Source: a virus (lineage: Duplodnaviria; Heunggongvirae; Uroviricota; Caudoviricetes). From it: a stretch of DNA of 9,520 nt. The notes beneath the pieces are model-generated. The model searched no databases. It had not been told where the DNA came from and saw only the letters and a list, made by a program, of their open reading frames with translations. The position numbers and the translations under genes are program-made. The stretch is from IMG/VR virus record IMGVR_UViG_2681813236_000006; one strand, 5' to 3'. Positions 8,125 to 8,403 of the stretch are shown piece by piece; the stretch's first letter is position 1; each line of letters starts with the position of its first letter.

Positions 8125-8403
8125 GTGAATATTGATGATATTTCCAGGTGCTCCAGCTTGTTGCAGCGTATTGAGGATGTTAATGCTGAACGAGCCAGGG
8201 CCTTTAGTCGTTTGACAGTTATATTTTCTACCCCTGATCGCCTTTCAGGAAAGAACATTGTTTTATTAAACAGTGATGCCATCCATAAGGTTTTTGAAGA
8301 GTTCATGGCTGCTAATTCAGAATTGCTGGCTCTTGTTGAGGAATACAACGAGATAGCCAGCCGTGTCGGTATGGATGAATTCAACGTCATACTTCGTGGA
8401 TAA
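8125..8403 (+). CDS. Hypothetical protein (92 aa), GTG start
   Basis: ORF with AGGAG at 8113-8117, 7 nt before GTG 8125. Followed 24 nt downstream by a clean intrinsic terminator. Family not recognised. Confidence 0.5.
   Translation: MNIDDISRCSSLLQRIEDVNAERARAFSRLTVIFSTPDRLSGKNIVLLNSDAIHKVFEEFMAANSELLALVEEYNEIASRVGMDEFNVILRG

Follow-up and report, generated by a model that had tools for sequence, protein, structure and literature searches.

The window analysed here is a stretch of 9,520 nucleotides (nt) from the IMG/VR virus record IMGVR_UViG_2681813236_000006 (Caudoviricetes), and it is part of a lambdoid prophage of Escherichia coli. Our subject is a small gene at positions 8125-8403 of its + strand, an open reading frame (ORF) of 92 codons with a GTG start that is preceded by the Shine-Dalgarno sequence AGGAG (8116-8120, + strand, by direct reading of the sequence; 4 nt 5' of the GTG) and followed by an intrinsic terminator. 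The reading frame, the RefSeq annotation and a family match (PHROG 2873) identify it as the coding sequence of an acidic helix-loop-helix protein of 92 residues, which RefSeq labels WP_001017777.1, "hypothetical protein", in an identical copy. The gene order of that copy is DUF968, RusA, Q, a 237-residue hypothetical protein, a 65-residue hypothetical protein, a DNA methyltransferase and our gene, followed on the 3' side by an opposite-strand DUF1883 gene, two holin genes, a GH108 endolysin gene and the terminase and head genes; the flanking cargo lies on the strand of our gene, with the DUF1883 gene opposite. Pfam searches of the window recovered Phage_antiter_Q (4360-5031), N6_N4_Mtase and DUF1883, together with a weak TrmB-like match for the 65-residue protein. 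The initial annotation, made from the sequence alone, had proposed a stand-alone 92-residue ORF with AGGAG, GTG and a terminator within a cargo island; all of these features are indeed present, and the cargo region is the variable segment between Q and the lysis genes. Ours is a genuine accessory gene and, within the late operon of this lambdoid prophage, fills the variable slot that separates Q from the lysis genes.

Coding status of the 92-codon gene

The gene is a real + strand gene under purifying selection, beyond a chance ORF. Comparison with the 61%-identical mEp460 copy by the Nei-Gojobori method gave nonsynonymous and synonymous distances (dN/dS) of 0.248/0.923, a ratio of about 0.27, and two further homologues compared in the same way gave 0.276/1.217. 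Among four close E. coli alleles, variable columns make up 2.2% of the coding sequence, 13% of the upstream non-coding DNA and 32% of the downstream DNA, and five of the six variable columns within the coding sequence fall at third codon positions. The AGGAG is identical across the four aligned alleles, the closest variable column being 8114. In addition, the forward frame is open in 14/14 homologues sampled, down to about 25% identity.

An antisense ORF of 95 codons (8103-8390, - strand) overlaps the gene. Because the wobble positions of the two frames coincide, neither codon-position statistics nor the excess of third-position changes can separate them. The frame matching the antisense ORF contains two to seven stop codons in every homologue outside the window lineage and is open only within that lineage; on the basis of these counts, the antisense ORF was rejected as a gene and is regarded as a by-product of the sense frame.

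Upstream of the gene, the reading frame is shut by an in-frame TGA (8092-8094), so that a longer form of the protein is impossible, and because the window closes the N-terminal extension in this way, the conserved GTG can be argued to be the true start. The phrog_2873 profile contains 16 additional N-terminal positions, which arise because gene callers choose upstream starts in mEp460-type copies; where these copies are called, the reported proteins have 108-118 residues. The composition of the gene differs from that of the neighbouring backbone genes: its GC content is 0.42 versus 0.51 in the methyltransferase gene and 0.54 in the DUF968 gene, and rare ATA/AGR codons occur at 5.4 per 100 codons versus 0.6-2.5 in the same two genes.

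Predicted protein and homology searches

The product is, by composition and modelling, a soluble, mildly acidic protein of 92 residues with two predicted helices of about 30 residues each. Its pI is 4.75 (15 acidic and 10 basic residues), and the AlphaFold2 (AF2) model consists of two long helices, residues 3-33 and 50-81, linked by a loop of 16 residues. The mean predicted local distance difference test (pLDDT) score was 81 for the single-sequence model and 92.3 for the model built with a multiple sequence alignment (MSA) of 31 sequences; the topology of the latter is helix, short beta bridge, helix, and its loop contains only single-residue beta bridges. The description of a small, acidic and helical protein without an assignable functional family, as put forward in the initial annotation, agrees with the pI, with the two modelled helices and with the absence of Pfam and NCBIfam matches.

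Two residues, R23 and N75, do not vary anywhere in the superfamily, and C9, L12, I16, L67 and E73 are nearly invariant; two motifs are conserved in the window's branch, one in the loop (S/T-P-D-R/K-x5-V-x-I-L-N) and a second that reads A-N-x-E-L...E-Y-N. The hydrophobic positions of the protein show a heptad-like pattern, and the invariant or nearly invariant residues C9, L12, I16, R23, N64, L67, V71 and Y74 fall mostly on these positions, with N75 outside the assigned register. This placement of conserved residues suggests that the core of a hairpin or bundle has been kept.

The protein matches phrog_2873 over its full length (residues 1-92, E = 9.2e-47) and phrog_4827 at E = 5.3e-8, both without functional annotation, and among 39 aligned family members, 38/39 match phrog_4827 and 32/39 match phrog_2873. 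The family is therefore already catalogued among the PHROGs without an assigned function, and the gene is an ordinary late-region accessory gene of a known class. Scans with Pfam, NCBIfam and PADLOC, covering the protein and 39 relatives, returned noise only, no family of PADLOC-DB matched the protein at E <= 1, and a profile search of PDB sequences gave nothing under E = 0.1. A Foldseek comparison of both AF2 models with the PDB and BFVD, which had been suggested along with the initial annotation, yielded only generic helical hairpins, all at E > 0.1, and neither the sequence nor the fold searches of the PDB returned a known anti-defence protein. The relationship that would have spoken against the initial annotation, homology to a structural or lysis protein that has been characterised, did not emerge at a significant level from Pfam, NCBIfam, the PDB sequences or Foldseek against the PDB and BFVD.

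An exhaustive HMMER search of 1.84 billion representatives gave 19 matches, all of them small hypothetical proteins or low-complexity coiled coils, and a profile search gave 49 clusters, all unnamed and without Pfam domains, in which every cluster with an organism name belongs to the Enterobacterales. A pattern-based scan of one genome per species recovered the window's branch from E. coli and Citrobacter braakii and otherwise only from one short contig of a metagenome-assembled genome (MAG). Literature searches with the protein accession, with the name of the distant relative Sb55 and with a peptide motif found no papers.

Insertion slot, terminator and probable late transcription

The terminator at 8427-8450 (+ strand), located by terminator scan and folding, is composed of a stem of 7 base pairs (bp), a tetraloop and T6 (AGCTCGC-TACT-GCGAGCT, then TTTTTT; local fold z = -2.2). 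It is conserved in the prophages L004 and L009 and in phiP27, JLK-2012 and Evi, and compared with the other copies, the one in the window has lost one base per stem arm with pairing preserved. Together with about 60 nt that follow it, the terminator recurs in several lambdoid phages (L020, phiP27, 4001-4033; L021, JLK-2012, 4001-4070; L022, Evi, 4001-4078). In phiP27, this element stands directly after tRNA-Ile and tRNA-Arg and just 5' of stxA2e; in JLK-2012 and Evi, it follows Q (and, in JLK-2012, annotated tRNA genes as well) and lies 5' of a tciA/tciB-type pair; and in L004 and L009, which carry 40%-identical homologues, it is found 3' of the homologue. The mEp460-type copy has no such terminator after it. 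Because the terminator is present in phages without our gene, it is a shared, functional backbone element at the right edge of the insertion slot and not private to the gene.

The presence or absence of the gene between conserved backbone genes can be seen directly: phiP27, JLK-2012 and Evi are without it, yet they share the flanking methyltransferase or Q together with the terminator backbone, and they have tRNA genes in its place. Homology between the window and phiP27 stops exactly at the methyltransferase stop codon. On the other side, a conserved backbone sequence 3' of the terminator (8451-8506, + strand, GCGCACATCAAAAAC...CAGAGCCTTTCAGGG) has 80-83% identity in Evi, JLK-2012 and PPompW, where its counterpart sits 5' of tciA/tciB, and this sequence marks the right-hand edge of the insertion slot.

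A promoter scan located a candidate pR' (TTGCAA-17-TATATT) at 5039-5067 (+ strand), and a tR'-like hairpin (AAAACCCGUGACCGAGCGGGUUUUUUU, about 5118-5145, + strand) lies just 3' of Q and folds at -12.5 kcal/mol (z = -3.0), the identity of both being assigned by position. The hairpin was absent from the list of the terminator scan, and the arrangement resembles that of mEp460, in which the hairpin AACCCGCCGCCGAGCGGGTT with T6 is located after Q. The phage homologues in mEp460, O104:H4, L004 and L009 are likewise downstream of Q. Lambdoid genes in the slot between Q and lysis, including stx, are transcribed from pR' once Q permits read-through of the terminator (PMC8065619). Since a pR'-like promoter and a tR'-like terminator precede our gene, the simplest reading is that its expression is Q-dependent and late and does not come from a private promoter.

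An alternative, which we consider unlikely, is that the gene is a classical moron that is expressed from its own promoter in the lysogen and benefits the host or prophage through superinfection exclusion or, in line with the initial annotation, through inhibition of host or competitor defence. The gene is bounded by a Shine-Dalgarno sequence and a good terminator, its GC content is well apart from that of the methyltransferase and DUF968 genes (0.42 versus 0.51-0.54), and plasmid-borne homologues must be expressed without Q. In addition, a non-coding leader of about 510 bp (7607-8115, + strand), which by comparison with phiP27 occupies the position of the tRNA genes of that phage, travels with the gene: the leader was counted in 51 E. 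coli genomes, the same number as the window-type allele. It holds a promoter-like site at 7986-8015 that matches the consensus at 10 of 12 positions, and A7987T in one allele gives a perfect -35 TTGACA. However, a consensus scan found three promoter-like sites versus 3.9 in shuffled sequence, the site at 7986-8015 was the best of them and is not conserved among alleles, and the allele with the improved -35 also carries a -10 deletion. Moreover, the terminator is common to phages that lack the gene, the PADLOC scan gave no match, and in L004 and L009, where a strong terminator lies roughly 55-70 nt upstream of the gene and another 40-50 nt downstream, no promoter was detected between the upstream terminator and the gene. 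The claim of a self-contained transcription unit, which the initial annotation had also made, was thus not borne out, and we prefer late expression under the control of Q.

The window, leader included, gave no matches in Rfam, whether at gathering or permissive thresholds, and none in tRNA scans. Two candidate elements in the leader were rejected: the inverted repeats 7762-7842 and 7875-7975 as structured RNA (fold z = -1.05, no Rfam match), and the perfect palindrome AGCTGGT-C-ACCAGCT at 8043-8057 as an operator, since it is mutated in other alleles. Further upstream, a terminator-like hairpin (GCCTTCCGCAGTGAAGGT with T6, 6357-6380) overlaps the 3' end of the 65-residue TrmB-like gene and may be another read-through point in the late leader.

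Distribution and contexts of the family

Among 5,426 complete E. coli genomes, 51 contain the 801 bases around the gene at 90-100% identity (at >= 95% in 50 of them), always on the chromosome; the same bases were found in none of the deposited phage genomes. A MAG labelled 'Bacillota bacterium' also includes a 2.7-kb contig (L032, JAEWMQ010000075.1) with a 99%-identical copy of the gene; this contig most likely comes from an E. coli prophage and was mis-binned. A paralogue of the mEp460 type, with 71-77% DNA identity, is far more common and occurs in 1,260 of the 5,426 genomes, including O104:H4, ST131 and ST69 strains; in nearly all sampled rows, the PGAP/RefSeq pipeline places no annotation beneath the match. 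The hairpin family is thereby carried by roughly a quarter of complete E. coli genomes and is mostly unannotated.

Relatives of the mEp460 type follow phage tRNA genes immediately. In O104:H4 2011C-3493, the paralogue is intact (L023 5001-5279, corresponding to NC_018658.1 2925128-2925406, minus strand) and is situated directly after three phage tRNA genes (tRNA-Ile/Arg/Arg) and 35 nt 5' of a DUF3927 gene. In the region L002 5563-6279, the mEp460-type copy stands immediately 3' of a tRNA with a CAU anticodon (annotated as tRNA-Ile in O104:H4 and phiP27) and of tRNA-Arg(UCU), which we take to decode ATA and AGG/AGA codons; such rare codons occur at 5.4 per 100 in our gene and at 8.7 per 100 in the mEp460 type.

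More distant relatives are found in several contexts. Members of the Sb55 clade (100 residues; ST64B, Hafnia and others) are located between the lysis cassette and HNH/TerS and are highly conserved across genera. P0021 and P0054 lie directly 5' of genes of tape-measure size, one encoding 886 residues with an SLT domain (L011) and one encoding 837 residues without a Pfam match in an E217-like tail module (L025), and P0056 lies 5' of a Dit-like baseplate gene. On plasmids (27 PLSDB records, of which the two examined are IncF), members are near a type-4b pilus operon or a PapB-type regulator: on plasmid pTD225C4_139, the family is represented by an unannotated ORF (L030 6001-6261) that immediately follows the gene for the lytic transglycosylase in a type-4b pilus operon, and on the other IncF plasmid, the relative is 1.2 kb from a PapB/FocB-type fimbrial regulator gene and divergent from it (L031 4601-4876). 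Relatives are thus recurrently near muralytic or filament-assembly genes, which is to some degree expected for anything in late operons, and no neighbouring gene is constant across the contexts. Because of the plasmid carriage and the shifting positions, a fixed virion-structural role is unlikely and an autonomous function is favoured.

Two segments of the window outside the gene also vary. The DUF1883 gene (8762-9097, - strand) replaces a pair of tciA (TerB family) and DUF3927 that is present in other copies (L027-L029, about 2470-3050), a second, independent cargo swap directly after the shared terminator; at least the three window-type alleles examined, of 11 records matching only part of the 801-base query, have tciA and DUF3927, not DUF1883, after the terminator. 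A segment at 1970-2595 (- strand) differs from the otherwise identical prophage L001 and contains two adjacent ORFs of 99 and 106 residues, by appearance a candidate toxin-antitoxin pair, the 99-residue product of which presumably resembles ParE/RelE-type toxins.

Discussion

Our preferred reading, which we hold tentatively and with a little less than even confidence, is that the gene product is made late and stays in the cytoplasm, where this helix-loop-helix protein would form oligomers and use its conserved loop or the surfaces of its helices to bind a conserved protein of the cell or the phage. We propose that, under the action of Q, RNA polymerase passes tR' and the terminators on either side of the cargo, so that the gene would be transcribed mainly from the late promoter and its protein made in lytic growth, not from a private promoter. 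The hairpin probably pairs to form a four-helix bundle, which would leave the conserved loop and the variable helix surfaces for contact with a partner. The protein most likely acts alone, because relatives occur at differing positions in late operons and on IncF plasmids with no constant neighbour, and its likeliest mode of action would be to bind and modulate a cytoplasmic component conserved among the Enterobacterales.

Several points weigh against this proposal. The dependence on Q is deduced from position, and the consensus promoter scan is a crude one that might overlook a promoter in the 510-bp leader if it were weak or not of the sigma-70 type. Function is not informed by any match of sequence or structure, every Foldseek match having E > 0.1. 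Finally, a phage-intrinsic role would account better than a host-directed one for the strong conservation of the Sb55 clade across genera and for its fixed place ahead of HNH/TerS in ST64B-like phages. It is decidedly unlikely that the hairpin family represents a new class of mobile-element effector with a single conserved cellular target, acting for instance as a late-lytic inhibitor of a host immunity or stress pathway or as a small chaperone for muralytic or filament-assembly proteins.

A phage- or pilus-intrinsic helper of assembly or lysis, that is, a small coiled-coil chaperone with a prefoldin-beta-like topology that assists a muralytic or filament-forming protein, appears improbable. 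Such a role would suit the distant members near the gene of tape-measure size, Dit, the SLT gene of the type-4b pilus and lysis cassettes, as well as the strong conservation of the Sb55 clade across genera, and prefoldin beta (2zdi_B) is the best Foldseek match of the MSA-based model, with template modelling (TM) scores of 0.69/0.60. Yet this match has E = 0.16 and 21% identity and is indistinguishable from about 500 generic helical-hairpin matches, de novo designs included. The position of the relatives within the late operon varies, in the window a terminator and an opposite-strand gene stand between the gene and the lysis genes, and phiP27, JLK-2012 and Evi share the backbone and dispense with the gene.

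Even less credit can be given to a regulatory role, in which the protein would have nucleic acid or the transcription machinery as its target and would, for example, modulate late transcription or the translation of adjacent cargo; we regard this as highly unlikely. In more than 1,200 genomes, the family does stand directly after phage tRNA genes, inside the leader that Q controls, some homologues adjoin PapB, a GerE-type protein or ST64B sb54, and the TraM anti-activator is among the weak fold matches (2q0o_C, E = 0.41); but the protein is acidic, no motif for binding DNA or RNA can be recognised in it, the neighbouring regulators differ by context, and the fold matches are not significant. 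A decaying, non-functional ORF that persists in a recombination hot-spot is scarcely credible: although PGAP leaves the common paralogue unannotated in most genomes and several database representatives (P0006-P0010) are frameshifted or truncated, the gene is under purifying selection with a coding sequence far more conserved than its flanks, its frame is intact in all 14 sampled homologues, and the AF2 fold is confident.

The gene sits exactly where Shiga toxin (Stx) phages carry their toxin genes, and because of this slot position, it is probably co-expressed with toxin-slot cargo on induction. Should the protein turn out to have a defined target in the host, it would count as a late-phase effector of wide distribution. 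Useful by-products of the analysis are the recognition of the terminator as a shared backbone element of the Stx/tRNA slot and of a common E. coli paralogue that is systematically unannotated.

Comparison with known systems

In shape, the predicted protein is like a number of antiparallel hairpins, among them prefoldin beta, the ING4 dimerisation domain, the TraM anti-activator and de novo oligomers, which also have two helices of about 30 residues and superpose with TM scores of 0.6-0.7. These generic matches all have E > 0.1 and 10-25% identity, and none stands out, so that the likeness is one of shape and provides no evidence of homology or of a common function; many of the hairpin proteins in the match list are oligomers that bind other proteins. 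For prefoldin beta 2zdi_B, the root-mean-square deviation is 8.3 Å at E = 0.16 and there is no sequence match, which falls short of significant similarity; whereas prefoldin has a beta-hairpin oligomerisation core, the model of our protein has only single-residue beta bridges in its loop.

A second comparison is with Sb55 of ST64B (NP_700428) and its 100-residue orthologues in Serratia, Proteus, Providencia, Hafnia and Yersinia prophages, which share the helix-loop-helix and the invariant R23 and N75 and are likewise encoded on the late strand. Identity to Sb55 is only about 25%, and the loop of Sb55 is longer (LHQKGNIN..PPE versus TPDRLSG in our protein). Sb55 is fixed between the lysis cassette and HNH/TerS, whereas our gene lies between Q and the lysis genes; the Sb55 clade is equally uncharacterised.

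With respect to position, the gene is equivalent to the cargo carried elsewhere in the same slot and backbone, namely stx2e in phiP27, tciA/tciB, NanS-p esterases and phage tRNAs; the equivalence is positional only, as the proteins bear no sequence or structural relationship to ours. The correspondence is most apparent with phiP27, in which Q is followed by a GIY-YIG gene, the TrmB-like gene, the methyltransferase, tRNAs, the terminator, stx2e, an opposite-strand gene and the holins, and in the window the order is Q, a membrane protein, the TrmB-like gene, the methyltransferase, our gene, the terminator, the opposite-strand DUF1883 gene and the holins.
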